A DNA stretch of 64,000 bases, from positions 132,680,001 to 132,744,000 of the forward strand of contig NW_027362769.1 in the NCBI RefSeq assembly GCF_046119375.1. The letters run 5' to 3'. Origin of the DNA: Phyllobates terribilis (taxonomy: Eukaryota). Below the pieces are notes generated by a model that saw only the letters and a list, made by a program, of their open reading frames with translations, had not been told where the DNA came from and did no database searches. Both the position numbers and the translations under genes were made by a program. Below, in pieces: positions 14,145 through 62,817 of the stretch; positions within the stretch are counted from its first letter, which is position 1, and the number at the start of each line of letters is the position of its first letter.

Positions 14145-14153
14145 AGAAGAGTA

Positions 14154-39499: not shown

Positions 39500-40206
39500 T
39501 TATATTGTATTTAAATACCTGGTTAGAGGAAAGTCTCTGTTAGGTGTTAGGTGTGTTGCTGATGTATATCCAGCCTTCAGTTGTTTGCTTGCACAGTTGT
39601 ATGCATATGCCATTGACTTCCATTGTGTATATAATATATCATGGGGCCGAATATATACTAAAAGGTCACTCTTTTACTTTAAATTTGGCCATAACGAAAA
39701 AACATAATGGAGAAAAGAAGGAGTCACCTCGGAGCGTTGTATTAGATATATGACTTTAACAGACCATTTTAAAATTATGCTTATAACATCTCTTAGACTG
39801 GATGAGGCTTGTGTGTTTTGGAAATTAGAAGTATGCAACCATTCTGAATTAGATTTTCAGAGTAAGTACACCAGCCTCATCAGGTGTAAGACATGAATTT
39901 AATGTATAGAGTTTAGATTGTGAAATTGGTGACAGATCTGCATTGGGTATTATACTTGAATTGTATGAATACAAGCAATAGGAATACAAGCTGATTGGCC
40001 GGCGGCTTGTATAGTTATTGCGGTGCTGGGAGCCAATGGCTCTCTGCCCCACAATACATTTCACTTGAATGTGTTTAGCTGTAAACAGTGCTGGCGTTGG
40101 TGGACCCCCTGACTCTGCGCACCCTCTACGACCATGATGTTTACGCCCCCTGCTGGTTGCTTTATTGGAGCCATTTATGTTTTACTCTGCAACAATGCAA
40201 CATTTC

Positions 40207-41160
40207 TGTAGCGTCGGCGTCCCTGCCCCCTGCTAGGCAGGGACGCCGTTCCCCTCACCTCTCCGCTCCGTGCCCGGCGGCTTCCCCCCGCTCTGCTGGC
40301 AGCGCGCGCTGCTTCCCGGCCCCTGTGCTTAGGGCGCGCGCGCTCCCCCTCTCTTAAAGGGGCCGCGCGCGCCGTCCTAAGGAGTCCCCGGCCAATGGCT
40401 GGAGGACCTCTCCATATATAAGGCACCTCCTCCAAAATGGAGGTGCCCGAGCAATGTTGTTGTGAAGCCTTCACTCTGCTTCAGCCCTCATGTCCCGTTA
40501 CCAGTTACCTGCCAGTCACCTGCCAGATTCCTGCTTGTTACCTGCCAGTCACCTGCCTGATTCCTGCCTGTTACCTGCCAGTCATCTGCCAGATTCCTGC
40601 TTGATACCTGCCTGATATCCGCTTACCAGCTTGCAAGCCTGCGGTCCGACGGTCTGCTCTCCGACGCCTGTCTGTCTATGGACCAGCCTGCCCGCTCACC
40701 TGGGAGCGCTCACCTGTTACTTGCCTGCTAGCCTACCTGGAGGCTCTGCCGTCACTTGCCGTGACCACCTGCCTGTCCAGAGACTCTTGCCCGCTCACCT
40801 GGGAGCGCTCACCTGCTACCTGCCTGCTAGCCTACCTGGAGGCTCTGCCGTCACTTGCCGTGACCACCTGCCTGTCCAGAGACTCTTGCCCGCTCACCTG
40901 GGAGCGCTCACCTGCTACCTGCCTGCTAGCCTACCTGGAGGCTCTGCCGTCACTTGCCGTGACCACCTGCCTGTCCAGAGACTCTCGCCCGCTCACCTAG
41001 GAGCGCTCACCAGCCACCAGCCCGCTGCCCTTCTACCCAGAGACTGTCCCTGTCACTTGCCGTGACTGCCTGCCCGTCTTCCCTGGGAGCCACCCGCTTC
41101 CTCACAAGGACTGCCCCCTTGTATAGTTGCACAGAGGTTCCACCTCCCAGACCCGTTACA
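40207..41160 (+). repeat. 5' LTR with TATA box (40415-40421) and internal 87-bp tandem repeats
   Basis: Direct repeat of 45365-46324; about 3.5 copies of an 87-bp unit at about 40690-41020. Confidence 0.95.
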
Positions 41161-41162
41161 GT

Positions 41163-41172
41163 TTGCTCGGGC
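41163..41172 (+). promoter_or_regulatory. Self-priming-type PBS (TTGCTCGGGC)
   Basis: Not a TGG-starting tRNA PBS. It is the exact reverse complement of GCCCGAGCAA at 40445-40454, 30 nt after the TATA start. Confidence 0.8.
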
Positions 41173-41173
41173 C

Positions 41174-42115
41174 ATGGAACCCGGTGGCCCCCAGATCTCC
41201 GATCTGCACCAGGAAGTCTTACGTCAGAAAACTCAGCAGGAGGTGGTACTGCCCTATCTACGGTCCGTTAACTCTCGTCTAGGCGCATTGTGTGACTCGT
41301 CTATGTCTACCTCTGGTCCAGCTGTGCCCATTCCTGCGGTACCGCAATCCAGTCCCTTCATGGTACCCGACTATGGACCTCGGCTTCTGGCACCTCCACG
41401 CTTTGCCGGCGAACCTACTTTAGCTCGGGGTTTCATAAACCAGTGCACCCTGCACTTTGAGCTATTGGCATACCAGTTCATCTCTGACCGGGCCAAGGTG
41501 GCCTTCATCATGTCCCATCTCACTGGGGAGGCACTGGCATGGCTAAATCCCCTGTGGGAGAGAGGGGATCCCCTGGTGTCCGACCTGCCATCTTTCCTCG
41601 CTGCTTTCCGGAAAGTCTTCGATGAACCTGGACGGAAAACCTCTTCTGCCTCCTCTCTGCTACGTCTCCGCCAAGGGAGTCTCACCGTGGGCCAATATGC
41701 CATACGGTTCCGCACCCTCGCTTCTGAGCTTGCCTGGGAAAATGAGGCTCTGGTGTCCGTCTTCTGGGAGGGTCTTTCCGGTCGGATTAAGGACGAGTTA
41801 GCTGGTCGGGACATTCCTACCACTCTGGATGACCTGGTGTCACTAGTTACCCGAATTGGCATCCGGTTCCAAGAACGTGCCAAAGAGACTACCTGGGAGA
41901 AAGACTTTTCTTGCTCTGCTCCTACGTCCCTGAGACCTGCCTCTCAACCAGTCACTCCGCGGGCGCTCTCGCCTGAACCTATGCAGATCGACCAGACCAA
42001 GATGGTCAGATCTCGCCAAGAATCTCGCCGAGCCGAGGGAAGCTGTTTCTATTGTGGCAGTAAGGAGCACTTCATCCGTTCCTGCCCGGAAAAGCCGGGA
42101 AATGCCAGTGTCTAG
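41174..42115 (+). CDS. gag: Gag (Ty3-type capsid plus CCHC zinc knuckle), 313 aa, intact
   Basis: PPRFAGEP...FINQCTLHF...[16 protein letters not shown]; [19 protein letters not shown]; [14 protein letters not shown]. Confidence 0.95.
42097..42103 (+). promoter_or_regulatory. Probable -1 ribosomal frameshift site GGGAAAT
   Basis: pol is in the -1 frame relative to gag and is open from 42064. The heptamer resembles the G GGA AAC slippery site of PEG10/sushi elements. Confidence 0.65.
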
Positions 42116-45100
42116 GACCGCTCGGAGAGGTCGTCCTAGACAAAAGTAAGCCCTCTCCGTCTCTGACTTTACCGGTCTCTATTGCTTGGGGAGAAAACCG
42201 TCACTTTGAACTCGCCCACCTGGATTCTGGAGCTGCTGGAAACCTCATCTCCCAGTCTCTGGTAGAGAGATACCGTATTCCCACCAAGTCCCTGGCTGAA
42301 CCATTAGCAGTCGCCTCCGTGGATGGAAGACTTCTCTCGGAGACCATCCTGCTCGTCACTGAACCCATAACCCTGCAGGTGGGAATGCTGCACTCTGAGG
42401 AAATCTCATTCCATGTGCTGTCCGGATTTTCTCACTCCCTGTTGCTAGGTCTACCTTGGCTCCAGACACACGAACCCGTATTGAACTGGCGATCCGGTGA
42501 AGTACTCCGATGGGGTCCAGACTGCCATAGGACCTGCCTGGTTCCGGTCCGCCCAGCTCGCCCTCCGCCAACTCCAGCTAATTTACCAGGTCTCCCAGCT
42601 CCTTACTGGCCCTATGCGGACGTCTTCGGTAAGAAGGAAGCAGAGACGTTGCCACCCCATAGGCCATATGACTGCCCGATCGACCTGGTACCTGGCTCCA
42701 CTCCTCCCCGTGGGCGTATCTACCCGTTGTCTGCAGCCGAGACCCGGGCCATGTCTGAGTACATTGAAGAGAATCTGGCTAGGGGATTTATCCGAAAATC
42801 TACCTCCCCGGCTGGAGCCGGATTCTTCTTTGTCAAAAAGAAAGACGGCTCGCTACGTCCCTGTATTGACTACAGAGGACTCAATCTCATCACAGTTAAA
42901 AATAAATACCCCCTTCCGCTCATCTCTGAGTTATTTGATCGTCTTAAAGGCGCCAGGATCTTCTCCAAGCTGGATCTACGCGGAGCATATAACCTGGTCC
43001 GTATCCGTCAGGGAGATGAGTAGAAAACAGCATTTAATACCTGGGACGGACACTATGAGTACCGGGTGATGCCCTTCGGTCTCTGCAATGCTCCCGCCGT
43101 CTTCCAAGAACTGGTCAACGACATCTTCCGTGACCTTCTTTACTCCTGCGTGGTGGTATACCTGGACGACATCTTGGTCTTCTCTCCGGATCTTCCCACA
43201 CACCGGAGGGATGTTCGTCAGGTCCTGCTTAGGCTCAGGCAGAACCACCTCTATGCTAAATACGAGAAGTGCCTTTTTGAGCAGACCTCTCTTCCTTTCC
43301 TGGGCTATGTTATCTCCCAGACAGGCTTGCGAATGGATCCCGAGAAGCTCTCTGCTGTCCTAAAGTGGCCCCGTCCGGAGGGCTTGAAGGTGATACAACA
43401 ATTCCTGGGCTTCGCTAATTACTATCGTCTCTTCATTCCTCACTTCTAGTCACGGACTGCGCCCATATCTGCGCTCACCCGTAAGGGAGCAAATCCCAAG
43501 GTATGGTCATCCGAAGCTGAGGAGGCCTTCCTTTCCCTGAAACAAGCCTTCTCCTCTGCCCCTGTGCTGCACCGTCCGGACTGCAACAAACAGTTCTACC
43601 TGGAGGTTGATGCCTCCTCCTCTGGAGCCGGAGCGGTGCTCACCCAAAAGTCTTCCTCCGGGAGAATGGTAACCTGCGGCTTTTTCTCTAAAATCTTCTC
43701 CTCCTCTGAGCGCAATTACTCCATTGGAGACCGAGAACTGCTTGCCGTTAAATTGGCGCTGGAGGAATGGCGTTACCTGCTTGAAGGGGCTCTATACCCG
43801 GTGATCATCTACACGGATCACAAGAACCTGGCATATCTCCAAAATGCCCAGAGACTTAATCCACGTCAGGCCCGGTGGTCTTTGTTTTTTGCCCGCTTCG
43901 ATTTCATCCTTCATTTCCGCCCGGCGGACAAAAATGTCAAAGCTGATGCCTTGTCCCGATACTTCCTGTCCTCCGACCAAGAGGAGGAGCCTATGCACAT
44001 TATCGACCCCTCCAAGGTGATGAATGTGGCCCCCTTGGATTTGACTCGTCTTCCACCCGGCAAGACGTTCGTGGCGCCTCCAGACCGTGAGAGGGTTCTT
44101 CGCTGGGGTCATTCTTCTAAACTAGCCGGCCATGCCAGCCAAAAGAAGACCTTCCTACTCATTTCCCGGCATTACTGGTGGCCTACCCTGCGTAAGGATG
44201 TGGTAGACTTCGTCTCTGCCTGTTCATCTTGTGGCCGCAACAAAGTTCCCAGACACTTACCAGCTGGTCATCTCCTGCCGCTTCCCATACCTGTTGCCCC
44301 GTGGCAACACATCGCTATGGACTTCATTACCGATCTTCCTGTCTCTGCCTGGTGTACTGTCATTTGGGTGGTCGCGGAGCGCTTCTCTAAAATGGCCCAC
44401 TTCATTCCCCTGCCTGGTCTTCCGTCTGCACCTGAGCTGGCTAAGGACTTTATTCGCCATATCTTCCGTCTCCATGGCCTACCCCTCCACATCGTGTCGG
44501 ATCGAGGGGTTCAGTTTACCTCACGCTTCTGGAGAGCCACATGTAAACTGCTGGACGTCACCCTGGACTTCTCCTCCGCTTACCACCCTCAGTCCAATGG
44601 TCAAGTGGAGCGGATCAATCAGATCCTTACCAGCTATCTCCGGCACTTTGTTAATGCCCACCATTCTGATTGGGTGGACCTCCTTCCTTGGGCCGAGTTC
44701 TCTTATAATAACCACGAGAGCGAATCCTCTTCCAAGTCCCCATTCTTTATTGTCTATGGCCAGCACCCCCGGATTCCGTTTCCTGTCTCCGCTTCTGTGG
44801 ACAACCCTGCCGCGCAGTCTCTTGTCAGCGAGTTTTCTACTATTTGGGAGAGTACTAGGTCTGCACTTCTTCAGTCCTCCGAGCGGATGAAGCGATATGC
44901 TGATAAGAGACGTCTGGATCCGCCTCAATTCCGTCCGGGAGACAAGGTTTGGCTCTCTTCCAAACATGTACGGCTCAAGATACCCTCCTACAAGTTAGGT
45001 CCTCGCTTCATCGGTCCTTTCGAAATCCTCAGGCAAATTAATCCAGTGGCCTACAAATTAAAACTCCCGGCCACCTTACGGATTCCCAACTCCTTCCACG

Positions 45101-45369
45101 TATCTCTCCTCAAACCCGTTGTCTTTAACTCTTTTTCCAACAATCCAGGTACTCCTCCTGCTCCGGTTTCCGCTGAAGACGTCTTTGAGGTAGAGAGTAT
45201 TCTGGCCACTAAGAGGGTAAGAGGAAAGACCTTTTTTTTGGTAGATTGGAAGGGGTTTGGTCCTGAGGAGAGAACATGGGAGCCCCGGGAGAACATCCAT
45301 GCCCCTCTCATCCTTGCTAAATTTCTCTCTGGCCTAAAAAAGGGGGGGCCTAAAGGGGGGGTACTGTAG
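42097..45369 (+). pseudogene. pol: Pol (aspartic protease, RT, RNase H, integrase, chromodomain) with two nonsense codons
   Basis: LDSGAAGN; [13 protein letters not shown]; EVDASSSGAGAVL, DRELLA; HxxxH..CxxC, MDFITDLP, SDRG, GQVERIN, GDKV, FEVESIL..WKGFGPEERTWEP. All in one frame, with TAG at 43021-23 and 43447-49. Confidence 0.96.
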
Positions 45370-46324
45370 CGTCGGCGACCCTGCCCCCTGATAGGCAGGG
45401 ACGCCGTTCCCCTCACCTCTCCGCTCCGTGCCCGGCGGCTTCCTCCCGCTCTGCTGGCAGCGCGCGCTGCTTCCCGGCCTCTGTGCTTAGGGCGTGCGCG
45501 CGCTCCCCCTCTCTTAAAGGGGCCGCGCACGCGGTCCAAAGGAGTCCCCGGCCAATGGCCGGAGGACCTCTCCATATATAAGGCACCTCCTCCAAAATGG
45601 AGGTGCCCGAGCAATGTTGTTGCAAAGCCTTCACTCTGCTTCAGCCCTCAGGTCCTGTTACCAGTTACCTGCCAGTCACCTGCCAGATTCCTGCTTGTTA
45701 CCTGCAAGTCACCTGCCTGATTCCTGCCTGTTACCTGCCAGTCATCTGCCAGATTCCTGCTTGATACCTGCCTGATATCCGCTTACCAGCTTGCAAGCCT
45801 GCGGTCCGACGGTCTGCTCTCCGACGCCTGTCAGTCTGTCTATGGACCAGCCTGCCCGCTCAGCTGGGAGCGCTCACCTGTTACTTGCCTGCTAGCCTAC
45901 CTGGAGGCTCTGCCGTCACTTGCCGTGACCACCTGTCTGTCCAGAGACTCTTGCCCGCTCACCTGGGAGCGCTCACCTGCTACCTGCCTGCTAGCCTACC
46001 TGGAGGCTCTGCCGTCACTTGCCGTGACCACCTGCCTGTCCAGAGACTCTTGCCAGCTCACCTGGGAGCGCTCACCTGCTACCTGCCTGCTAGCCTACCT
46101 GGAGGCTCTGCCGTCACTTGCCGTGACCACCTGCCTGTCCAGAGACTCTCGCCCGCTCACCTAGGAGCGCTCACCAGCCACCAGCCCGCTGCCCTTCTAC
46201 CCAGAGACTGTCCCTGTCACTTGCCGTGACTGCCTGCCCGTCTTCCCTGGGAGCCACCCGCTTCCTCACAAGGACTGCCCCCTTGTATAGTTGCACAGAG
46301 GTTCCACCTCCCAGACCCGTTCCA
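45365..46324 (+). repeat. 3' LTR of the chromovirus
   Basis: Direct repeat of the 5' LTR, followed by TSD ATTTC. Confidence 0.95.
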
Positions 46325-46352
46325 ATTTCACAGGAAACTATGTGTCTCAGAC

Positions 46353-47489: not shown

Positions 47490-48007
47490 TATTCTGCCAC
47501 CGATGTATGTGGGGTGAGATGTGTCTGAGGGATGTGACACGGATGTCTGTATAAGCAATGGCATATAGCGTCAACTCACTGACCTGCGCTTCTGTTCCTC
47601 ATGAACTTCACGTGGTAATCCGGAATGATGATGCAGTGATGAATTCAACAGATTTATTTACAGTTCTTGATGAGGTGAGATGAGGGAAAGTGAAGGATGA
47701 GGAAAGAGGAGGAATTGTAGGTATTAGAAGCGCCAGGTAAAGTGGTAACAAGAGAATCCTTTCTCCAGTCCTGCAGCATGTGTAGTCAAGATGGATGTGA
47801 TGAAGAAGAAGGAAGTGAGGAGCAGGAGATAGGAGGAGTTACAGACCGAAAGGTGTTGTGGGTAAAACACAGGAATAATACATGTTATAACTTATTATAA
47901 CAATGGCCAGTAGATGGCAGCAAAGTACAACAATACAATAATCATGTAACATTAGGTAATGCCCAAAATGGCTGAAAGTCTTTTCAAACAAAGAGCTGGA
48001 CAGCACA
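47490..48007 (-). repeat. BEL 3' LTR
   Basis: Direct repeat of 62818-63335. Confidence 0.95.
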
Positions 48008-48293
48008 CTCCCCGTCTGAAATCCCTGGATTTCACTATATTAACAGTCTTGAGGTGTAGGTGTTTTCCTGAAGTACTGAGGGATACCTCAACCTGAAAGA
48101 CAAACAATGCATGCAATGCAACAATAACATATAACAAAAGAGGTAGACGAATGTCTATAACAGTTCCTGAAGCAATCCAAAGGATGCCCATCTTCGAATT
48201 GGAGAAGCCGCACTAGGCCAAACTGTCTCCAACCCAATTGTAATCCAGTGGTTACAGTTCCTGGAAAGTTCCTTGTGGTTGAATGGATAGTCC

Positions 48294-48845
48294 TTAATTC
48301 TCAACCGACATAAGTAAGATGACCTCTGATATAGGCCTAATGAAAGATTTGTGGTCACCTTGCTTCGTGACTGTTACGTCCACCTTGCGCACCTTGCCAT
48401 CTTCACTTGGAAAGGTTTTCGATATAAGTCCCATAGGCCATTCGTTTCTTTCCACTTTCTGGTCTCTCATGAGAACAAGATCTCTTACTTGTAAGCTAGG
48501 TTTAACTTGTTGCCATTTTCTCCGTCGTTGAAGAAGGTTAAGGTAATCCCTCTTCCATCTACTTCAGAAACAGTTAGCCAGATGTTGCACGTGTTTCCAA
48601 CATCTCTGATATTTGTTACCGGACACAGAGTCTTCAGGTGGGTTAGGAACGGTTCCAAGTTTCTGAGTGAGGAGAGTTGCTGGTGTAAGAATAGCAGGAG
48701 ATTCTGAATCCGTAGATATGGGAACAAGTGGTCTTGAGTTTACAATAGCCGATACTTCTGCTAAGAAAGTGGTTAAGGTCTCATGAGTGAGTCTCGAGAG
48801 GTTTGAGTCCATCAACATAGACTCCAGTATCCGACGAGTGATGCC
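48294..48845 (-). pseudogene. pol: BEL pol, integrase C-terminal part
   Basis: ITRRILESML...LTTFLAEVSAIVNSRPL...LTPATLL; ends ...RPISEVILLMSVEN*. Confidence 0.9.
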
Positions 48846-49927
48846 TGTTATGCACACGCCCGGGCTAAGCGGCGTGTGCGTGTGATTGGTAGTGATTCCA
48901 CTGGACCGTGCCGGAGAGTGAATGCCTGGAGGGGTGTGACTAAGTATTCACCCGATCCGACCAGGGTCGCACGACGGCATACGACGCCAGTGCACCAAGG
49001 AGGAACCGAGCAGAGGGACCAGGTGCTACTCCAGGACAGACCCCGGACACGGCTGTTGACCCACACAGGGAAATACAGGAACAGGCTGGTAGGCTGGCAC
49101 ACAGACTGGAGGGTATAGGCAGGCACGACTGGTATGCAGGCAGGCGGGTATGCAGGCAGGGGGGTAAAGGCAAGCACAGCTAGAGTGCAGACAGGGAGGC
49201 ACTAGCAGGTAGGAACACAGGCGGGATAGGACCCAGTACACACCGGGACTCAGGAACAATACAGGCAGAGGGTTACAGGCAAGCACAGCTAGAGTGCAGA
49301 CAAGGCTGAGCAGGGAGGACAGGGCTCTGTTCACACGGAACAGACAGGAAGGGAAAGACAGAGCCAGATACTCACACAGTACTTGCAGAGACAACAAGCA
49401 GGAGTTAGGTACGAGTTCAGACTCTGCAGAAAAAGGAAGGGAACGGACATAGAGGCAAAACAGGTAAAGGACAGGAGAGAGTTCAGACTGGAACTGAGTG
49501 TACGGAGGAGACCGACACTGCAGAGGGATACAGGAGCGGGTCTGGGAATACGGCCCCCAGAGAGGCGGAACGAACAGGCAAGGAGCGTGTTCAGACAGGA
49601 CAGACCAGACACAGGAGCGGGTCTAGGAAATCGGCCACTAGAAGGCGAAAGGAACAGGCTAGGAGCGTGTTCAGACAGGACAGACAAGAGAACACAGAAA
49701 GGAGTCAGTTCAGACACGGGAGCTGATACCGCAAAGCAGGAGACATACAGGACTCAGTTCAGACACGGGAGCTGATACCGCAAAGCAGGAGACATACAGG
49801 ACTCAGTTCAGACACGGGAACTGATACAAAAAGCAGGAGACAAGAGACGGGACCTGGCACCTTCAGAGTGCAAGCACACACTGAAGGAAACACTATGCTC
49901 AGGCAGGGATAGAAGGGAGCTGCTGAG

Positions 49928-52003
49928 CTATATACCAAGTGACAGACAGCAATAGGCTGAGGACGCACAAGGGGTGTGACCCACAGCAGGTACAAAAGGC
50001 AGGAAGTGATCGGGCGCCGCCCTTAAGCAGCAGAAACAGACACAAACAGACAGCATGGAGGGAAGCCAGAGAGACATTCTGGACAGGAGATCAAGTGCGC
50101 CCTCTTGCACAGTGGGAGATGGACCACCATGCAAGGACGCCGCCAGGTATGTTACAGTACCTCCCCCCTTACGCCCCCTCTTCTTCAGGCCTGCCAGAAT
50201 CTTCCGCAGGGAATTCGAGGGCCAGTCGTTCACTGGGTTGGAGGGGGACAGAGACTTAAGGGTAATCTCTGCTTCGAGGTACATCTTGTCAAGCTCACAG
50301 GAAGAAATAGACGGGTTATCACGTACATAATGAGGAAAAGTCACTGTCTCTTTGTTATCTGGTGGTATCCCGGAGGATTCAGGAAACAACTGGAGGTCCT
50401 CCGCCGGGTCAGAAGAGTGCAGAGGCTCAGAGAAAACAACTGCTTCAGAGTACACTAGGTCGGACTCACTGGAGGAAGCAGGCGAGGTATCGGGTACCGA
50501 GTATAGGAAAGTCTCTGTCCATTCACCACCAGGTGGCACCCCGAAGGGTTCTGGAGACAGCTGGCGGTCCTCCGCCTGGTCAGAGGGGTGTAGAGACTCA
50601 CGGGTAACCTCTGCTTCAGAGTACACTAGGTCGGACTCACTGGAGGAAGCAGGCGAGGTATCGGGTACCGAGTATAGGAAAGTCTCTGTCCATTCACCAC
50701 CAGGTGGCACCCCGAAGGGTTCTGGAGACAGCTGGCGGTCCTCCGCCTGGTCAGAGGGGTGTAGAGACTCACGGGTAACCTCTGCTTCAGAGTACACTAG
50801 GTCGGACTCACTGGACGAAGCAAGCGAGGTATCAGATCCAGGATATAGGAAAGTCTCTGTCCATTCACCACCAGGTGGCACCCCGAAGGATTCTGAACAC
50901 AACTGGAGGTCCTCCGCCTGGTCGGAGGGGTGTAGAGACTCAGGAGTAACCTCTGCTTCGGAGTACACTAAGTTGGACTCACTGGACGAAGCGAGCGAGG
51001 TATCAGGTACAGAGTATAGGAGAGTATCTGTCCTTTCGCTACCAGGTAGCACCCCGAAGGGTTCAGGAGACAACTGGAGATCCTCCGCCTGGTCGGAGGG
51101 GTGTAGAGACTCGGAGGTAACTACCACTTTGGGGTACCCATTGTCAGGCTCACAGGACGAAGCGGACAAAGTATTGAGTACCGGGTGTAGAGAAGTCTCT
51201 CTCCATTTGTCATCGAGTGGTATCCCGGAGGGTTCAGGAGGCAACAGGGGATCCTCCGCCAGGTAGTAGAGGTGCACAGACTCTGAGGTAACCACAGCTT
51301 TGGAGCATCCTTGGACATGCACACCGGTTAAAGAGAAAGAAGCATCTGATGCCGGGTGCAGGAAGTTCTCCTGTGTGGAGTCTGGATGGGCAGAAGTCTC
51401 TTCGGCCAGGAGAACTGGTGCACTACCCACGCACATTACCCATTGGGGTTTCTCCGGGATACAGGGAGATGAAGCTTCAGTAGGGACTCCAAGGCTGGGG
51501 TCAGGAGGTCTCAGGGAGGACAGACCCTGGCGTGACGGCTTGCCTCTAAGTCTAGCACGTCTGGACTGCCTCTTGAGGTTGAGAGAAGTATTCCGGAAAG
51601 CGTAGTCACCCTGTGAGGATTCTGGGTGGGCAGTAGTCTCATTGGGCTGGAGGACTATTGCGCTACCCACACACATTACCCGTCGGGGCTGCTCCGGGAT
51701 ATTGGGAAGTGAAGCTTCAGCAGGGGCTTCAGAGTTAGGGTCCTCGAAGACCATACAAAAGGCCACCAGGAAGGCCTGCAGGTCAAGGATGACAGGATCC
51801 CATGCTTCCCATAGGGGGGTGACCCATTTCAAGGCATCACCCGCTAGGTAGTCAATCATAAAGGCCACTTTAGCCCAATCGGAAGGAAAATAGAGAGGGT
51901 AGGCCTTAAAGTGTAGCATGCATTGCTCCACAAATGCACGACACTGTCTTGGATCCCCATAGTAACGTGGCGGATCCGCAGGAACGAGGGCTGATAGATC
52001 CAT
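49928..52003 (-). CDS. 691-aa protein: Ty3 gag N-terminal capsid domain (RTL1/LDOC1-like) followed by acidic Ser/Glu/Pro-rich 57-aa repeats; reads 229 nt into the 3' LTR
   Basis: The first 90 aa or so (PPRYYGDPRQCRAFVEQCMLHF...KVAFMIDYLAGDALKWVTPLWE..DP...LQAFLVAFCMVFEDP) align by eye with gag at 41174. The ORF is uninterrupted over 2076 nt. Confidence 0.8.
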   Translation of the reverse strand: MDLSALVPADPPRYYGDPRQCRAFVEQCMLHFKAYPLYFPSDWAKVAFMIDYLAGDALKWVTPLWEAWDPVILDLQAFLVAFCMVFEDPNSEAPAEASLPNIPEQPRRVMCVGSAIVLQPNETTAHPESSQGDYAFRNTSLNLKRQSRRARLRGKPSRQGLSSLRPPDPSLGVPTEASSPCIPEKPQWVMCVGSAPVLLAEETSAHPDSTQENFLHPASDASFSLTGVHVQGCSKAVVTSESVHLYYLAEDPLLPPEPSGIPLDDKWRETSLHPVLNTLSASSCEPDNGYPKVVVTSESLHPSDQAEDLQLSPEPFGVLPGSERTDTLLYSVPDTSLASSSESNLVYSEAEVTPESLHPSDQAEDLQLCSESFGVPPGGEWTETFLYPGSDTSLASSSESDLVYSEAEVTRESLHPSDQAEDRQLSPEPFGVPPGGEWTETFLYSVPDTSPASSSESDLVYSEAEVTRESLHPSDQAEDRQLSPEPFGVPPGGEWTETFLYSVPDTSPASSSESDLVYSEAVVFSEPLHSSDPAEDLQLFPESSGIPPDNKETVTFPHYVRDNPSISSCELDKMYLEAEITLKSLSPSNPVNDWPSNSLRKILAGLKKRGRKGGGTVTYLAASLHGGPSPTVQEGALDLLSRMSLWLPSMLSVCVCFCCLRAAPDHFLPFVPAVGHTPCASSAYCCLSLGI
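50230..51310 (-). repeat. 171-bp (57-aa) coding tandem repeat, 6 full copies plus 1 partial
   Basis: Period measured from CGGACTCAC at 50461 and 50632; the two central copies are identical and outer copies diverge. Bounds approximate. Confidence 0.92.
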
Positions 52004-52135
52004 CTGGACGGGTGCGTAATTCGCCTGGAACTCAGCTAAAGGGGGAAAAAAAAATTATTTATTTTATTTTAATGCATGTATTCGCTGGAAAAACTTCTCA
52101 AAGAGCGAAAGCCGTGGGGCTCAACGGGAACCATG

Positions 52136-52145
52136 GCCTGAGCAT
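52136..52145 (-). promoter_or_regulatory. Self-priming-type PBS (ATGCTCAGGC)
   Basis: Complementary to minus-strand GCCTGAGCAT at 53206-53197, 30 nt after the start of TATATA (53236-53231). Confidence 0.8.
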
Positions 52146-53458
52146 GCTGTTATGCACACGCCCGGGCTAAGCGGCGTGTGCGTGTGATTGGTAGTGATTC
52201 CACTGGACCATGCCGGAGAGTGAATGCCTGGAGGGGCGTGACTAAGTATTCACCCGATCCGACCAGGGTCGCACGACGGCATACGACGCCAGTGCACCAA
52301 GGAGGAACCGAGCAGAGGGACCAGGTGCTACTCCAGGACAGACCCCGGACACGGCTGTTGACCCACACAGGGAAATACAGGAACAGGCTGGTAGGCTGGC
52401 ACACAGACTGGAGGGTATAGGCAGGCACGACTGGTATGCAGGCAGGCGGGTATGCAGGCAGGGGGGTAAAGGCAAGCACAGCTAGAGTGCAGACAGGGAG
52501 GCACTAGCAGGTAGGAACACAGGCGGGATAGGACCCAGTACACACCGGGACTCAGGAACAATACAGGCAGAGGGTTACAGGCAAGCACAGCTAGAGTGCA
52601 GACAAGGCTGAGCAGGGAGGACAGGGCTCTGTTCACACGGAACAGACAGGAAGGGAAAGACAGAGCCAGATACTCACACAGTACTTGCAGAGACAACAAG
52701 CAGGAGTTAGGTACGAGTTCAGACTCTGCAGAAAAAGGAAGGGAACGGACATAGAGGCAAAACAGGTAAAGGACAGGAGAGAGTTCAGACTGGAACTGAG
52801 TGTACGGAGGAGACCGACACTGCAGAGGGATACAGGAGCGGGTCTGGGAATACGGCCCCCAGAGAGGCGGAACGAACAGGCAAGGAGCGTGTTCAGACAG
52901 GACAGACCAGACACAGGAGCGGGTCTAGGAAATCGGCCACTAGAAGGCGAAAGGAACAGGCTAGGAGCGTGTTCAGACAGGACAGACAAGAGAACACAGA
53001 AAGGAGTCAGTTCAGACACGGGAGCTGATACCGCAAAGCAGGAGACATACAGGACTCAGTTCAGACACGGGAGCTGATACCGCAAAGCAGGAGACATACA
53101 GGACTCAGTTCAGACACGGGAACTGATACAAAAAGCAGGAGACAAGAGACGGGACCTGGCACCTTCAGAGTGCAAGCACACACTGAAGGAAACACTATGC
53201 TCAGGCAGGGATAGAAGGGAGCTGCTGAGCTATATACCAAGTGACAGACAGCAATAGGCTGAGGACGCACAAGGGGTGTGACCCACAGCAGGTACAAAAG
53301 GCAGGAAGTGATCGGGCGCCGCCCTTAAGCAGCAGAAACAGACACAAACAGACAGCATGGAGGGAAGCCAGAGAGACATTCTGGACAGGAGATCAAGTGC
53401 GCCCTCTTGCACAGTGGGAGATGGACCACCATGCAAGGACGCCGCCAGGTATGTTACA

Positions 53459-55093
53459 ATGCCTATCATTCTTTCCCATGATCCGCCCATATGGGAAGCG
53501 TGAGGAGGGTTGAAGACCCATGAACAGCCATTGTTTGCCAAGAAATCCTGGGCTGCAGTTGCATCTAATTGTAGTTCTCGACAGGCACCTACAAAGTTTG
53601 TTCCACAATCAGACCTTATTTGCTTGACTGGTCCTCATATGGCGAGGAATCGTCTTAAGGCATTGATAAAACTGGAGAAATCCATTGATTCTATTACTTT
53701 TATGTGTATTGTTCGTACACTCATGCATGTGAACAACACTGCCCAACGTTTACTTTGGGCATGTCCGCCTCTGGTCCTACGTGCAGTGACTTCCCAAGGG
53801 CCAAAAACGTCCAAACCAATATAGGTAAACGGTGGTTCTGTGCTTGTCCTGTCAGCAGGCAAATCAGACATCTGTTGCTGTTGCAGTTTTCCTCTTGCCT
53901 TGCGACACTGAACACAAAGATGAATTAAATGGGAAACTTGTCTCTTTGCTCCCACAATCGAGAGGCCTGCAACTCTTAAGGCACCTTCAGTGAAGTGTCT
54001 GCCTTGATGTTTGACCTTTTCATGGTAATGTCGTATTAGCAGAGTGGTGATGTGGTGATGGCCAGGAATGATTAGAGGATTCTTTTCTGCCTCCTCCAAC
54101 TTGGCTTTGTTTAAACGACCACCGACTCTCAGTAAACCCTTCTTGTCAATTACGGGATTTAAGTCGACAATAGGGCTGTTTTTAAGGACATCTTGCTTTT
54201 TAAGTATACATTCCATTTCCTTGTGAAAAACATTCTGCTGCACATTATGTATCACAAACAGTTCACTCAGAGCAATGTCTTCTGCAGAGAGAGGCTTATG
54301 ACAGATGTGCCAACCGCGACACTCAGCGTTACTGTCCTTATTGCAGTAGCATTGTGCGATGTGGACTAACCTTGCAATAGCACGAACAAGCCTTATCCAT
54401 CTGGAGAAGCAATCAAATAGCCGACAGTCCAAGCCATCCTTTTCCTTGGAATTGGTGATGAGGGTACTGATGTCAGGATGGATCTCTGGGTCAACGTCTG
54501 GATCCTGAAGACTGAAGCTGTCTTCAACGGCAGTCTCTTCACATTGGCCGCAAAGGAACTCCGGTCCTGTTAACTAAGAAGAGTTTGCAAAGGCACCAAC
54601 AGACACTGGCCTAGTAGCAAGGTCAGCAGGGTTAAGATGGGATGGAACATACTGCCATTGCTCAGGTTTAGAGGATTTCCTGATCCTTTCAACGCGGTTA
54701 CTGACATAGACATAGAAGCGTTTTGTCTGGTTGTATATGTAGCCCAGAACATCCTTGCAGTCTGTGTAGAATCTTGTGTCATCCACATGAATAGCTAGTT
54801 CACTCTGTATGAAGTCTGCAATCTCGATGGCTAGTACAGCCCCACAGAGCTCAAGTCTGGGTATGGTATGCTCAGGTTTAGGAGCCAATTTAACCTTTCC
54901 AAATAGAAATCCAACATGGGCTTCATTGTTAGAGTCTATAACCTTCAAATAGGCAACAGCTGCAATGGCTTCAGTAGAGGCGTCAGAGAATGTATGGATC
55001 TCTTTCCCTTGACTCGTAGCAAGAGATGCTGGAGTGTAACAACGTGGTATGTGGATTTTATCTAAGGCACAAAGAGATTCCCTCCATGACTTC
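53459..55093 (-). pseudogene. pol: BEL pol, RNase H (Pao peptidase A17 region), zinc finger and integrase core
   Basis: HTFSDASTEAIAAVAY..KVKLAP....IPRLELCGA; HYHEKVKHQG..CVQC; IGLDVFGP; HMGGSWERMIG. Confidence 0.92.
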
Positions 55094-56229
55094 TGTGGCA
55101 CCCTGCTGCGCACTGTTGCCACAGATCCCAGAGGAGTGCATGGATGGAATTCTCCCCAGTGACCTCACTACATGCAGACATCTCCACCCAAGTCCACTAG
55201 ATGGAGCCCTGTCAGGTATATAAATACTGGGGGGTGGAGTTCAGGAAGTCAGTCAGTGGGAAGCAGACAGTGTGACACCATGCTGCAGCTCCAGACAAGC
55301 TGAAGTCTGTGTGGCTGAAGGCCAGGCTAGGCCCAAGCTGCGGGCTAGTCTGGCCAGTGAGAACCTGGAGCGGGCTAGAAGGCAAGTGAGAGTTCCTGTC
55401 AGGCACAGACAGGGACAGAACTCAGAGAGTCTGCTCAGGGAGTCTGCATGAGAGAGTCTGCAGACTGAGGAGAAGAAGGAGAAACGCATAGAGGGCAGAG
55501 GAGCATAACAGGCTCACCCCGAACCATATACCGGATACCGGGTCCGCGCCTACAGGGATCTTTATGACCAGTAGGAACAACCGGAATCCCTGGAGAACTA
55601 CAAGTTCCAGGTTAACCAACCGCTGACCACAGCAACAGGGTTAGGTACCACTAAGGCTCCAGCGACCAGGAATAGTGGGAACCAGGAGAAAACCCTACCG
55701 CCAGGTCAGTAGGTACAAGAAGGAAGCAGTAAGCAAGCCAGGCAGGCCCGAAGCTTAGAGAGTAAAAGACACAGATCAGGAGGCCTTACACCCGCTCACT
55801 GGGGAGAGTCCAGAAATGTACCCTTCGCCCTGAGTGCCTTGGACTGTACCTGCATCACCACCAGTAAAGGTATTGAAGTTTACCCTTGTGTGTGTGCCTG
55901 TACTTCCTCTGGGACCGTCCTGCCGTCTCCCTCCTGCTTCCACCATCTTTCTACACCTCTACACTGCCCTGAGGCCTGCTCCCCCTGTGGGGAGCCGTCC
56001 CATCATAGCTGCCCCTAACATCAGCCTCAGTGGACTGTCGCAGTGCTGGTAACCTCTTACCAGAATCCACAGGTGGCGTCACAAATTATTCTAAAACCCC
56101 TATAAATATAATTATTCCCCATTTCACTGACCGCCCTGGGTCACGGACCGGGCCAGCCACCGTGATATCCCCCGGCAACCAGAGGCCCGGCTGCCGAGTA
56201 CTCCCACGGCCCAAGGGGCGCGTCAGCTT

Positions 56230-56247
56230 TGGCGTCACAAACAGGAT
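56230..56247 (+). promoter_or_regulatory. PBS TGGCGTCACAAACAGGAT (probably tRNA-Ser(CGA))
   Basis: 4 nt after the 5' LTR; identical to the PBS of the element at 8309-15401. Confidence 0.78.
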
Positions 56248-56608
56248 TTCGTGCCCGCTGCAACGACGGAGTATTGTGCCCGTTGCCACCGCCTACTGTG
56301 CGCCTTTAATAAGAACTGTGTGTTTAACTATGGCGAAGATCGCCGCCATTACTGTGTTGCCGCACGGGAAGAAGGGCGTAACCGCGGGAAACTGAGGCAT
56401 ACTTGCTGAAGCGCGCTAAGCCCAGGACACGCCCCTTGCCGCAACGACGAACCAGGAAGCGCAAGGTCCTGGAAGGAGTCCAGTGAGCGCCCTGACGTCA
56501 GACGCAAGCGACGCAAGGTCCTGAAAGAAGACCGTCGCCTGCGGAGTTGCGGCCTACCGGAAGAAAAGTAAAGAAGGTAGGCCACGGTTCACTAGAGGGG
56601 GCGCAACG

Positions 56609-56869
56609 ATGTCCGAAGCCCAGCAGAACGCCGCGGCCCTCGACAACGCCCCCGCAGGAGTCTCTTCGTCCGGTGCTGCTCAGGCAGGAGCAGTCGCCGC
56701 ACCAGCAGGAGCTGTGGCACGGATGGTGCCCATGGCTCTACAGCATGCCGTAAATGTTCAGAGGGTGAGGGAACTGTTGGAACAGGACACCCTGACTGAA
56801 CGGGAGGATGACCAGGACGGGTCACCCACCTCCCATAACCAGGCTCAGCCCAGGACGGGGCGCCCTTGA
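56609..56869 (+). CDS. Short Ala-rich ORF (86 aa) at the position where gag would begin; possibly a truncated gag remnant
   Basis: The only sense ORF with a real ATG near the expected gag position; no recognisable domain. Confidence 0.3.
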   Translation: MSEAQQNAAALDNAPAGVSSSGAAQAGAVAAPAGAVARMVPMALQHAVNVQRVRELLEQDTLTEREDDQDGSPTSHNQAQPRTGRP

Positions 56870-58589
56870 GCTACTAGTTCCCCGGTAGCTCTCATGTAAC
56901 CTGAACTTGGAGTCCGTGAACTATGAGCGGTCCCACCATTGAACGTAGTTTGCACCTCCTGAGGTGCCCCCTGGTGGTTTTCACAAGACCACCACCACAA
57001 AAACCTTCTTGGCGTGGCCAAACCAGTGGTCCTACAACAGTCCTGCAGCCCGCCCAGGACCTTCGTTGGGGGTTTGGAGCAGGTCACCCACAAGCCAGCT
57101 TACTCGGATGAGAGGGACACACCCGAGGAGGGATCTAATCAAAACTGGTCATTGCAGAACGTAAAGTTGTGTTGCTGCTAATGTGCGTGTGCAGCCCACA
57201 AACTGTTTCCTTGTACATAATTGCACTCCCTGGAGTGCCTCTAAAGCTACCTATGCAGTGAAATGGACACCCTGTTAGGGGACTCACTGACATGTGCTCC
57301 AAAACTTTAACTGTTGTATATATGTGTATTATTTATTATGTTTTTGCAACGTTCAAGAGATGTGCCTCCCATAAAGGGAAGAAATGTTATTGTTTAACCT
57401 GTTTTTGAAAAATGCTTCAGTCCAGGAGTACTGAGTTTTACTAGGGGGGAATGTGGCGCCCTGCTGCGCAGTGGTACCACAGATCCCAGAGGGGTGCATG
57501 GATGGAATTCTCCCCAGTGGCCTCACTACATGCAGACATCTCCACCCAAGTCCACTAGATGGAGCCCTGTCAGGTATATAAATACTGGGGGGTGGAGTTC
57601 AGGAAGTCAGTCAGTGGGAAGCAGACAGTGTGACACCATGCTGCAGCTCCAGACAAGCTGAAGTCTGTGTGGCTGAAGGCCAGGCTAGGCCCAAGCTGCG
57701 GGCTAGTCTGGCCAGTGAGAGCCTGGAATGGGCTAGAAGGGAAGTGAGAGTTCCTGTCAGGCACAGACAGGGATAGAACTCAGAGAGTCTGCTCAGGGAG
57801 TCTGCATGAGAGAGTCTGCAGACTGAGGAGAAGAAGGAGAAACGCATAGGGGGCAGAGGAGCATAACAGGCTCACCCTGAACCATATACCGGACACCGGG
57901 TCCGCGCCTACAGGGATCTTTATGACCAGTATGAACAACCGGAATCCCTGGAGAACTACAAGTTCCTGGTTAACCAACCGCTGACCACAGCAACAGGGTT
58001 AGGTACCACTAAGGCTCCAGCGACCAGGAATAGTGGGAACCAGGAGAAAACACTACCGCCAGGTCAGTAGGTACAAGAAGGAAGCAGTAAGCAAGCCAGG
58101 CCTAGCTCCAGGCAGGTCCGAAGCTTAGAGAGTAAAAGACACAGATCAGGAGGCCTTACACCCGCTCACTGGGGAGAGTCCAGAAATGTACCCTTCGCCC
58201 TGAGTGCCTTGGACTGTACCTGCATCACCACCAGTAAAGGTATTGAAGTTTACCCTTGTGTGTGTGCCTGTACTTCCTCTGGGACTGTCCTGCCGTCTCC
58301 CTCCTGCTTCCACCATCTTTCTACACCTCTACACTGCCCTGAGGCCTGCTCCACCTGTGGGGAGCCGTCCCATCATAGCTGCCCCTAACATCAGCCTCAG
58401 TGGACTGTCGCAGCGCTGGTAACCTCTTATCAGAATCCACAGGTCACGAATTATTCTAAAACCCCTATAAATATAATTATTCCCCATTTCACTGACCGCC
58501 CTGGGTCACGGACCAGGCCAGCCACCGTGATATCCCCCGGCAACCAGAGGCCCGGCTGCCGAGTACTCCCACTGCCCAGGGGCGCGTCA

Positions 58590-61500
58590 CTTCCACTTTA
58601 GTTGTTTGTCAGCAGGGAGTGGTACGTCCCAGTCCTTAATAGACTCTGAGAGTTGCTTTAACAGAAGCTTGCCTTGTATAGTCAGGGGTGCAGCAAACCC
58701 GAGTGGATCGTATAGACTGTTCACCACTGACAGAACCCCACGCTTAGTAAATGTTTTTTCTGTACCAGTAACCTGAAAGCTGAAGGAGTCCTTTAACAAG
58801 TTCCATCTCAAGCCCAGACTTCTCTGTACTGGTGGGTTGTCTGAACCTAGATTCAAGTCTCTGAATTCTGAAGCATGATCATTAGAGTGAAAAGCCTTCA
58901 TGGCAACAGCACTGTTGGAGGCAATTTTATGCAATCTTAAGTGAGCTTTAGAAAGCATACCTTGTGTCCATTTGAGCAGATCTATGGCTTCTTCCGCTGT
59001 GGGCAGGGATTTGAGACCGTCGTCCACATAGAAGTCCTTTTCAACGAACTGTTGGGCGTCCTTCCCGAATTCTGCTTCACCATCAGAGGCGGTCCTACGT
59101 AGGCCGTATGTGCAACTGCAGGAGAAGGGCTGTTTCCAAACACGTGCACCTTCATGCGGTATTCAACCACTTCCTTGCTGGTGTCGTTGTCTCGGTGCCA
59201 TAGAAAACAGAGATAGCTTCTATGGTCTTGTCCCACGATGAAACAATGGAACATTTGTTCAATGTCAGCAGTAATGGCGACTGGCTCTTTTCTGAATCTC
59301 ATGAGCGCTCCCACCAGGTTATTAGTCATGTTGGGACCAGTGAGGAGAACATCGTTCAGAGATACACCATCATGTTTGGCGCTTGAATCGAACACCACTC
59401 TGATTTGTTTAGGCTTTCTTGGATGGTATACTCCAAAGGAAGGTAGATACCAGCATTCTTCATTGGCTTGCAAGGGTGGAGCTGGCTCTGCGTGGTCATT
59501 GCGAAATATCTTCTCCATAAAGGCTACAAAATGGTCCTTCATTTCAGGCTTATTTCTCAATGTTCTCTGCAGTGAGGTGAACATAAGGCCTGTTCTCGGT
59601 TGTTAGGAAGCATGGCCCTTGTACCCTTGAAGGGTAAGGGAGCGACCCAATGGTCAGATTCGTTCTTGAAGAATCCACTGTCCATTATTTTATTAAATTC
59701 CTTGTCTTCTATGGATAAGGCGACCTTGTTGTCATCTTGTATTGTGCGAAACACTGTTCTCCCTAAGTCGTCACCATAGGGAGTGGGAATGATGTCAGGC
59801 TCTTGGATGAAGTCAGAGAACCTTTTTTTCACTTTGTAGTAATGAGAGCATGGTTTGAAGTGAGTTGTGCGACCATTTTGAAGTACATACGTTTTAAAGG
59901 AGTTGACTTCGGATGCCTTGTGACTCTTATCCAGACATACATTGCCCCCGATTACCCAGCCTAGATCAAGTCTTTGGGCGTATGGAGCATCATCTGGGCC
60001 ATTGCATTGTTGGCGCACCTTGTGGACCCTTAGAATGTCTCTCCCCAGTACGATTAGATTATCAGCATTCGTGTCCCGAGGAGGAATTTTGTTAGTTAGG
60101 TGCCTCAAGTGGGGATGATGAAGCTTGGCTTCCGGAGTGGGAATTTCTTCCTTGTTATCAGGTATCTGGTCACATTTAATTAAAGTTGGCAAGGGTATGT
60201 GCACGTTCCTCTTGATTGAAGAGATAATGTACCCAGAAGCTCTCCTACCAGACGTCTCAATATGACCAGAACAGGTGTTGAGAGTGTACGGAGCCATTTG
60301 TCCTTTTATATTGAAGATCTCAAAGAGTTTTGACTTTGCTAGAGACCTGTTACTTTGCTCATCTTTTATGGCATACATTTTGGAGGCTTTGTCGGGTTGT
60401 CCTTCTGGATAGACCTTGACCAGACATACTTTAGCGCAGCATGTAGGAGCAGTCCCTTCTCCACATACTTCCATACATGAGGAGGAAACAGCAGTTGCAG
60501 CTGGGTCAGGAACTTGTGGCTCCCCGCCATGCTTTTGAGCAGGATTGGGTGCTGCAGAAGGGTTGTGAATTGTGTGGAGCTGGTGTGGGATGCATAGATG
60601 TAACGTGTTTGTCACTACTGCATTCGGTGCACTTAATGACAGCCTTACAGTCCTTAGCAAGGTGGTCTGAGGAGGCGCAACACTTGTAACACCCTAGCTC
60701 TTTGAGAATATCTCTGCATTCCTGCAAAGTTTTTGCCCTGAATCCACGGCATTCCTTAAGTGGGTGAGGTCTTTTGTGAATAGAGCACATACAGTTACTG
60801 TCCATAGCTTTAGGAGCAACAGCGTTTGTTTTGGTAAAAGAGGGTGCAGTAAGTGGAACATCAGTCTTTCTCACGGATACTGTGCTCCTTAACTCTCTAC
60901 GTTTGGTGATATTGTTATCATACCTTGTAGATGATGATAATGATAAAGCTGGTGGAGTAGGTTCAGTGAAGTCAAAGCTGGGATCATTCTTCTTCCGAAC
61001 TTGATCACTGACGAACCTGGAAAAATAGGAAAAGGGAGGAAAAGACACATTATGCTGTCCTTTATACTGTGAGCTGTGGTCTGCCCATTTATCCTGCATG
61101 CCTTTTGGCAACTTGAGAACTACTGGAGTCACGCCATGAGCAGTATCAACGTAGCTCAGTCCTGAAAGACGTGGGTCTAATTTTGCCAATTCTATTTCCT
61201 TTAGCTGGTCACTCAAGTCTTGCAGTTTTCGATTGTCCTTGTTAGTTATTTTTGGGAAGGCTTGCAGTTTCTTAAATAAGGCAGACTCTATGGCTTCTGA
61301 GCTGCCGTAGGTTTGCTCCAGTCTCTCCCATGCTGCAATAAGACCTGCATCTGAATAGTCCACATGAACTGCCCTTATTGTCTTGATGCGCTCCGCTGAT
61401 TCAGGACCTAACCAGTTGACAAGCAAATCTAGTTGTTCCTTGCCAGTGAGATTAAGGTCTTGGATTACTGCTTGAAAGGTCGATTTCCAGGCTCTATAAT

Positions 61501-62731
61501 TTTCGGCACAATCATCAAACTTTGAGAGACTGATGTTTATTAACTAGCTGCGAATCATATATCTGGCGAATTCAGACATGTCCGACCTCCCGGTCATAGT
61601 TGCAGGATTAACTTGTGGTATCCCTGGGGAATGTAAGTTCTCTGGCTTATAAGACTGAGATGGATCAGGACGGAATGATGTGGCATGAGGGTTAAGTTGT
61701 GGTTTAGTCTCTATAGGGTCTGCTGGCTGCGGCCTAAATTGTGGGCTAGTGCTGGAAGTTACCTTGTCGGCAGTAGGTGGCGACATTTCTTGGCTTACGG
61801 GTGCATCCGTTGAATGGATTGGAGGTGGCGCTGGTACAGATGGTAAATGTTTTAGCACATAGTCTGTAGTGCGATCAGCTGGGTCCTCCATTTCTCCTGG
61901 AATAAAGCAGTCCATATCAGCATCTTGACCTAGTGCTTGTTCAAGGACCTTCAGTTTAGTGAGGGCTGCTGCTTCTTCCCTTTCTGCTTGGAGTATTTTT
62001 AATTGAGTTTCCATCTCAGCTTCCTGCTTTTTTAATTGGGCTCCCATCTCAGCTTCCTGCTTTTTTAATTGGGCTCCCATCTCAGCTTCCTGCTTTTTTA
62101 ATTGGGCTTCTACTTCAGCCTCCTTCCTAGCAAAGGAGCTTCTTACTCTAGCTTCCTCTGCAGATGCACGGATTTCCAGTATCTTGTCAGACAATGTTGA
62201 CTTCCTGGACTGAGATGATCTGGAAGACCGAGATGTGTTTTTGGTCGAGGTTGTACGATGTGACCTAACCGCTTGGAGGTGTGCGATGCGGAGTTCTGCC
62301 TTTACCTGGGCATCTCGCACTAATACGGTCTTTTCTTGGAGAAGAGTCTCCCTTTCAGCCAGCTCTGCTGGGGCATCATCCATATCACAGTTACTCAGGA
62401 ATGCAATGTACTTAACAGACAGTCTCTGGTAGTGATCATAGGCGGCAGATAAACTCTTCAATTTGGCAGTTAAATCTGCTGCGTCATTGTTAGCACATGG
62501 AAGAACTGCTAAATAATGATCAACTCAGCCCCATAAATGATCTATGTTATCATGGAGCTCATCTCTGGTTGTCTCCAGGTTCTCTCTGACCTTTTGTGTT
62601 GGCTTGGTTACACGTTTGGGTCGTACATCCTACTCTGCAGTAAGTGTGGACTCTGCTCCTGGAGCATCTGTGGTGTCAGGAACATGATGTGCTTCTCCCA
62701 CAGAGGGATCCACTGTGCCCTTTGTAGACAT
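58590..62731 (-). pseudogene. BEL gag, protease and RT, with stops and frameshifts
   Basis: ATG at about 62731; coiled-coil N-terminus with tandem repeats; CSIHKRPHPLKEC, CYKCCASSDHLAKDC and CTECSSDKH knuckles; AIKDEQSNRS protease motif; RVVFDSS, TADIEQMF, HVFGNSPSP, YVDDGL; SLYDPLG. Confidence 0.92.
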
Positions 62732-62817
62732 ACTTTAGCTAAGATGATGGACGATCATAGACTTGCTAGCAGACATGCATATGCACGCAGATACTGAAGA
62801 CTTAGGTCTCTTGTTAC

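Follow-up and report, generated by a model that had tools for sequence, protein, structure and literature searches.

What a long terminal repeat (LTR) retrotransposon without pol gains from a long, fully open reading frame is the question raised by a 4,613-bp element at positions 48846-53458 of a 64,000-nt stretch of the Phyllobates terribilis genome (RefSeq assembly GCF_046119375.1, contig NW_027362769.1, positions 132,680,001 to 132,744,000; the whole stretch is referred to here as the window). The element, all features of which lie on the minus strand, is a young member of a pol-less family that is long-lived and high in copy number. By alignment, its single open reading frame (ORF) is a collapsed gag-pol derivative in which the N-terminal lobe (N-lobe) of the capsid is under purifying selection, with most of the remaining frame neutral yet depleted of stops.

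A young copy of a large pol-less family

The internal region of 1,991 bp (50157-52147) is flanked by a 5' LTR (52148-53458) and a 3' LTR (48846-50156), each 1,311 bp long, and the insertion is bordered by a target site duplication, ATGCC, at 48841-48845 and 53459-53463 (strand not applicable). TG..CA ends, a primer-binding site (PBS) and a polypurine tract (PPT; 50160-50185, recognized by its sequence) complete the LTR hallmarks, all of which are present. Exact alignment gave 2 mismatches over the 1,311 LTR positions, in agreement with the original prediction that this is the youngest LTR pair of the window, the others being 96.2-97.7% alike. The element had also been called pol-less, and a Pfam profile search accordingly returned no match to reverse transcriptase (RT), integrase or Retrotrans_gag within it.

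An exact 19-nt leader pattern, the use of which favours young copies, has 10,786 matches in the 10.6-Gb genome, compared with 0 for a control. When the genome was searched, all 40 scored matches (among 925 candidates) were about 100% identical, and all 150 scored matches to the N-terminal 219 amino acids were at least 98% identical, with open-frame lengths that step by 57 codons. Thirty loci were fetched, and both LTR ends could be parsed in 24. All 24 are open in frame, and each carries a 5-bp duplication and 0-5 LTR mismatches; two pairs among them have a duplication in common and might each represent a single insertion. LTR length is private to each copy (1,063-1,422 bp) and mostly equal in its two LTRs, the pattern expected from reverse transcription. 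For a positional sample, 60 copies were drawn by position within the initial 43 Mb of one contig, and the N-lobe is present in every one of the 58 that could be parsed. The frame is open to the PPT in 40 of the 49 young-type copies with both ends found and broken in 9, and for 7 no PPT was found. A derivative in which the N-lobe is deleted was seen as one type in only 2 places. The ORF is thus kept across sister copies, and across subfamilies as well, and the predicted recent mobilization in trans is borne out by these dispersed young pol-less copies. With about 10,000 copies that have internal regions, and solo LTRs in addition, the family is a visible contributor to the genome.

Some family copies stand head to tail about 3.4-3.5 kb apart and apparently share LTRs (G000:C4:673188663-673196303 and G000:C11:504479605-504487873). 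LTR lengths in the family vary widely via internal tandem arrays, and a solo LTR of a sister subfamily in the window (11186-13687), with ends 83-85% alike, is swollen by a 36-bp array of 26 copies. An unrelated abundant repeat carries the same 14-nt LTR-PBS junction word and inflates the junction count (loci L101, L102, L105, L106, L108, L112, L117, L118, L123 and L128).

The reading frame, its ancestry and the N-lobe fold

The 691-amino-acid ORF (49928-52003) is fully open, as had been reported. Its start codon is an internal Met; the ancestral one is out of frame in the window copy. The internal region holds 615 of its codons; the final 76 read through into the 3' LTR, the first 229 nt of which are included in the frame in the window's subfamily only, and these last 76 amino acids are incidental LTR read-through. 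A membrane-anchor role for the hydrophobic, Cys-rich tail was rejected, as the tail is LTR sequence, all five of its shared indels shift the frame, and its N/S ratio (defined below) is 1.84.

From its N-terminus the ORF comprises the capsid N-lobe (amino acids 1-90; 51734-52003), a capsid domain by Pfam and structure model and under purifying selection by codon maximum likelihood (ML); a first copy of a motif of about 41 amino acids (51611-51700); an Arg/Lys-rich patch (amino acids 143-158; 51530-51577) that could contact RNA; a second motif copy (51371-51460), a duplication found in the younger subfamilies; six acidic, Ser/Pro-rich units of 57 amino acids (50255-51280), the number of which varies in frame among copies; and an alignable remnant of the integrase chromodomain end (50159-50254). 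The sole Pfam match is to DUF4939 (amino acids 11-86, E 7.8e-6), which at 26.2 bits falls below the curated cut-off of 29. The original prediction described a capsid N-lobe without the C-terminal lobe (C-lobe) or zinc knuckle. The N-lobe is there and no knuckle was matched by Pfam, but a decayed C-lobe piece and the chromodomain remnant remain. Both predicted motif copies were found, beginning at amino acids 102 and 182, and are now read as a decayed C-lobe piece, whereas of the "six-plus" repeats six 171-bp units were recovered and no more (5.5 copies by Tandem Repeats Finder).

The reference for ancestry was a gag-pol copy of a sushi-type chromovirus in the window (40206-46328; LTRs 97.5% alike, pol interrupted), whose self-priming PBS is nearly identical to that of the family. 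Further subfamilies were traced via a related solo LTR of the window and via PBS patterns. The single frame of an older subfamily aligns with the gag of the reference (31% over 252 columns, E 5e-29), with its protease and the start of RT (29% over 208, E 1e-21; the active-site region is lost) and, in a comparison made against the Pfam Chromo-positive pol, with the chromodomain end (43% over 72 amino acids, E 3e-8; up to 47% in the oldest lineage). The three alignments follow the gag-pol order, place the 41-amino-acid motif at the C-lobe start and contain a decayed zinc knuckle, and the in-frame gag-pol deletion that yields a single ORF is seen in the alignment. In the oldest lineage, with copies about 80% alike, a near-full chromodomain remnant follows one or two proto-repeat units. 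The window's repeat units align to these proto-repeats (0-1 of 300 shuffles as good), and the last third of the unit matches the linker preceding the chromodomain, the rest being without detectable source; compared directly with the gag-pol C-terminus, the window units gave no significant alignment (142-296 of 300 shuffles as good). In younger subfamilies the knuckle-protease block is gone, the motif is duplicated, repeats have been added and the first ATG has dropped out of frame: it is in the open frame in 0 of 21 and 1 of 29 cases, compared with 14 of 23 in an older group. The internal length was kept near 1.95 kb (median 1,940 versus 1,989 bp) despite the loss of about 260 knuckle-protease codons and the gain of repeats. 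These alignments indicate that the family derives from a Tf1/sushi-type gag-pol element, the C-lobe, knuckle, protease and chromodomain of which decayed stepwise in one frame. Among relatives of the window's gag-pol element, about 30 of 150 scored matches have open frames of more than 1,090 codons, so potential helpers exist; gag-pol elements with the same or a near-identical PBS and long open pol frames are the candidates.

In the structure model, amino acids 1-90 are predicted confidently (predicted local distance difference test mostly >90) and the remainder is not. The best match of the model is dArc1 residues 41-121 (Z 9.6, root-mean-square deviation 2.5, 76 aligned), followed by further capsid N-lobes, among them those of PNMA2 (Z 8.0) and Ty3. 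Capsid C-lobes score similarly because both lobes share one fold, and the assignment to the N-lobe is made because the ORF is collinear with gag. A single-sequence search of solved structures gave no capsid match, Foldseek gave no match at E <0.001 (its top rows are nonetheless capsids), and word-indexed searches for homologues gave no match to the whole ORF or to amino acids 1-230. HMMER with family representatives (amino acids 1-368) gave 1,155 library matches. The best 150 are N-lobe matches at 32-53% that never extend past amino acid 144, except for P0071, an unrelated low-complexity repeat protein that was rejected as a homologue. The named proteins closest in sequence are frog proteins. 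A capsid N-lobe tree, used as the family has no RT for an RT tree, places it among frog gag proteins, with 17 of 17 pol-less N-lobes on one side of a branch with support 99/97 (midpoint root only). The tree sister of the family, P0006, is an ordinary full gag.

Selection along the open frame

Changes common to several copies, which mark transposing lineages, were compared with private changes, which postdate insertion. Pooled over four regions and up to 92 copies, the shared changes comprise 94 synonymous, 140 non-synonymous and 1 stop, and the private changes 162 synonymous, 495 non-synonymous and 35 stops. The non-synonymous to synonymous ratio of shared versus private changes (N/S ratio) is 0.49 in the sense frame (p 1e-5), and stops are depleted (1 versus 35, p 6e-4); in shifted frames the N/S ratio is 0.83-1.35, except for the mirror frame (0.55). 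Private mutations are neutral, stops included. By region, the N/S ratio is 0.47-0.49 in the N-lobe (0.34 without CpG), the motifs give no signal, and the repeats stand at 0.81 (p 0.4; 327 units, partly saturated). Codon ML on 14-17 distinct real copies and 43 repeat units gave an omega of 0.5 for the N-lobe (0.4-0.6, p 1.4e-4), 1.0 for the C-lobe remnant, 1.2 for motif 2 plus linker and 1.0 for the repeat units, and omega is about 1 also among the window copy's own six units. A pairwise estimate between two subfamilies is 0.53-0.71 for the repeats, so mild constraint may exist there.

In 56 young-type copies, 38 of them new, shared changes in the N-lobe fall on the three codon positions as 16/13/38 (p 2e-4), versus 27/33/29 just downstream. 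None of the 89 downstream shared changes is a stop, compared with 29 in the other five frames (p 0.008), and the N/S ratio of the N-lobe in this set is 0.50 (p 0.09 taken alone). Stop depletion extends to the neutral regions (p 7e-4 or 1e-2, by threshold). With the N-lobe constrained and the tail neutral yet stop-free, it is the N-lobe sequence and an open frame that matter, and not the repeat sequence. The predicted selection on the protein is therefore upheld for the N-lobe, where it is purifying, but the divergence of the repeats, which had been offered as a sign of selection on their sequence, does not indicate it, omega being about 1 both there and in the 41-amino-acid motifs.

Proposed function of the half-capsid ORF and known parallels

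The PBS (52136-52145), located 2 nt past the LTR, is of the self-priming type. Its exact complement lies at 53197-53206, 24 nt downstream of the TATA box of the 5' LTR (53231-53236), a spacing shared with the window's gag-pol element. From the TATA spacing and PBS complementarity, these 10 nt are predicted to be the first of the transcript and the self-primer (chance of a 10-mer match in the LTR 0.001). The complementarity is exact in 26 of 30 young loci. In one oldest-lineage copy and in the window's gag-pol element (40206-46328), PBS and primer have other sequences but again complement each other; seven gag-pol-type loci, chosen by PBS pattern, show one mismatch in the pairing. Self-priming is described as a trait of the Tf1/sushi group (PMC6317226), and the family is probably reverse transcribed in this way, with RT and integrase supplied by a helper. 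The leader (52004-52135) carries a decayed gag N-terminus, a first ATG out of frame, a variable A/T tract and an acceptor-like TAG (52036-52038), which is a candidate splice site. Such a YAG site with a pyrimidine tract before the start codon has newly arisen in the younger subfamilies (50 of 50 copies). A donor-like GTGAGT lies in the LTR at 52677, and a splice from there to the acceptor-like site would drop the PBS and five upstream ATGs. One 2,481-nt sequencing-run contig terminates at the acceptor-like site. Contigs from runs of uncertain type span the element, without strand or level, and one run, under a second organism label, covers 30 of 30 bins. No splice junction at the acceptor-like site turned up in them, with the tract next to it masked.

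We propose that the ORF provides a cis-acting half-capsid on a neutral tether, which recruits its own RNA to helper particles; we regard the chances that this is right or wrong as evenly balanced. The ORF would be translated, the N-lobe would fold early in translation, and it would dock on the helper capsid by N-lobe contacts of the kind that RTL8 makes with PEG10. Because the nascent protein would remain ribosome-tethered to its own RNA while about 500 further codons are read, that RNA would be preferentially packaged in helper particles, the tail serving as a tether or spacer. RTL8, which has only an N-lobe, is reported to bind the PEG10 N-lobe and to enter PEG10 particles (PMC11684626), a precedent by which the originally predicted co-assembly is plausible by analogy. 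In a family this large, a diffusible product would let broken siblings ride along, so the purging of stops points to a benefit in cis. More tentatively, a mobile parasite of retrotransposons may here have evolved an adaptor for packaging that is pared down to a single N-lobe on a translated tether of no particular sequence and that links the element's own RNA to helper capsids while translation is under way. If so, the family would be a selfish, transposing counterpart of RTL8/LDOC1, with all intermediates from full gag-pol to half-capsid in one genome. The family also shows, as an experiment of nature, what its own ORF must supply to a non-autonomous element, namely one folded lobe and an open frame.

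Several observations weigh against the cis proposal. Constraint on the N-lobe is much weaker than in gag-pol relatives (omega 0.5 versus 0.15). The older, dead protease region also has a low N/S ratio (0.42-0.43, p 0.002; 0.54, p 0.09 without CpG), so part of the signal may be general rather than specific to the N-lobe; the ML omega of the protease remnant is 1.0. Shared changes are transition-richer than private ones (0.65-0.75 versus 0.39-0.50), which lowers the N/S ratio by itself, a +1 indel is common to 3 copies and 1-2 stops are shared, and the subfamilies look mosaic, which can bias omega. Translation from unspliced RNA is not obvious because the predicted 5' leader is 1,203 nt long with 8 upstream ATGs, and a spliced mRNA without the PBS would break strict cis action. 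Finally, RTL8 is reported to reduce particle yield and not to help (PMC11684626).

In the main rival explanation, which is possible but doubtful, the benefit comes from translation and not from the protein: a frame that stays open between the leader and the 3' LTR would shield the RNA from nonsense-mediated decay or route it to assembly, and the N-lobe constraint would reflect folding or toxicity. This fits the tail equally well, as most of the ORF is neutral but stop-free, the frame always reaches the PPT while sequence beyond it varies freely, and ORF content turned over while length stayed. It fits the N-lobe less well than the cis proposal does, since constraint sits in this single folded domain, as the codon-position counts indicate, and the N-lobe was never lost from the 58 position-ordered copies while other domains were deleted.

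A trans-acting competitor or decoy, perhaps made from spliced RNA and tuning helper capsid assembly for the benefit of the family, is unlikely. It has the RTL8 precedent (PMC11684626) and the combination of donor-like GTGAGT and YAG acceptor ahead of the start codon in its favour, but in a family of about 10,000 copies, siblings with a broken frame would profit without contributing, and stops shared among copies would be expected to build up, which they do not. The donor-like 6-mer also occurs in older subfamilies without the YAG acceptor, and the pure decoy that had been suggested would harm an element that depends on the helper it inhibits. That the ORF is a neutral relic, open only through the youth of its copies, is very improbable and already largely refuted: the window's subfamily is about 99.8% uniform and most of the ORF has an omega of about 1, but subfamilies 84-87% alike share the open frame, oldest-lineage copies are only about 80% alike, the protease remnant at 29% identity has several in-frame deletions and no stop, and the signals are frame-specific. 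Least probable is a benefit to the host, through gag-pol restriction, a developmental role or early RTL-like domestication: mammalian half-capsid genes exist (PMC10516033) and young zebrafish Bik Gag proteins are reported to have host roles (PMC12067270), but selection acts on transposing lineages and not on a fixed locus, private mutations including stops are neutral, the best 150 library matches end by amino acid 144 apart from the one low-complexity protein, omega 0.5 is far above the reported 0.1 for RTL8 and 0.17 for LDOC1 (PMC10516033), and neither a fixed single locus nor a cross-species orthologue was found for the proposed domestication precursor.

Pol-less elements with a gag ORF and fixed half-capsid genes are already known, whereas a mobile N-lobe-only family is apparently unreported: no description of one, and no paper joining DUF4939 with a retrotransposon, was found in the main texts of openly accessible papers. 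IAP 1delta1 retains most of Gag. That element is betaretrovirus-like, an endogenous retrovirus with one recent deletion and little decay, whereas the present family is a Ty3/gypsy chromovirus derivative from which the capsid C-lobe, knuckle and protease disappeared step by step along a lengthy series of subfamilies. Both have a single gag-pol fusion ORF made by in-frame deletion. IAP 1delta1 is reported to need Gag and Pol in trans, to outnumber new helper insertions and to encode a cis-acting fusion protein (PMC7411935, PMC6466679), and this cis-translation effect becomes testable in a second, unrelated lineage. The TR-GAG elements of plants, described as active, likewise have LTRs, PBS, PPT, a 5-bp duplication and one gag-derived ORF without pol (PMC4350172). 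They are described as shorter than 4 kb and as encoding a GAG precursor with capsid and nucleocapsid (PMC4350172), whereas the present element has 4,613 bp, only the N-lobe intact and pol-derived remnants in its ORF; a precursor of the TR-GAG kind was not found, with no Retrotrans_gag or zinc knuckle match. In vertebrates, Xenopus 1a11/xretpos and zebrafish BHIKHARI-2 are likewise described as LTR elements that lack pol and have one Gag-like ORF (PMC4585706, PMC12067270). Compared by description only, Bik Gag has a full capsid domain of retroviral type, and the Xenopus elements, with tens of ORF copies, were considered immobile. The Tf1/sushi chromoviruses share the self-priming PBS, the 5-bp duplication, the DUF4939-type capsid and, as a remnant here, the chromodomain, but the family has no protease, RT, RNase H or integrase core. 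RTL8 and LDOC1 are described as a sushi-type N-lobe followed by diverged, disordered sequence (PMC10516033), and the modelled fold here is likewise an N-lobe without a C-lobe. Those are fixed host genes under strong purifying selection, whereas the present family, with omega 0.5, is mobile and consists of thousands of dispersed young copies, not a single locus with orthologues. The half-capsid truncation in mammals is dated to soon after gene birth (PMC10516033); the same truncation in a spreading element under element-level selection means that half-capsids can arise before domestication. The analogy originally drawn with Ty1 p22/p18 does not carry over, as these correspond to the C-terminal half of the capsid (p22 is the capsid C-terminal domain by its PDB titles), whereas the C-lobe of this family is decayed, with omega about 1.

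The element is inserted in the pol of a BEL/Pao element, with Peptidase_A17 and DUF1759 matches nearby. This BEL/Pao element (47490-63335; 518-bp repeats 97.7% alike) is split both by the insertion and by a second LTR element (55094-58589), whose LTRs are 96.2% alike and enclose about 1.2 kb. Elsewhere in the window, an LTR element at 8309-15401 (LTRs 96.6% alike, no pol seen) is inserted in a 17-bp minisatellite and contains an ORF that resembles a cold-shock domain (10345-10968; Pfam CSD E 0.0017, which falls below cut-off). An inverted repeat pair at 22000-23569 (242 nt, 95% complementary, separated by 1,086 nt) resembles a non-autonomous DNA transposon.

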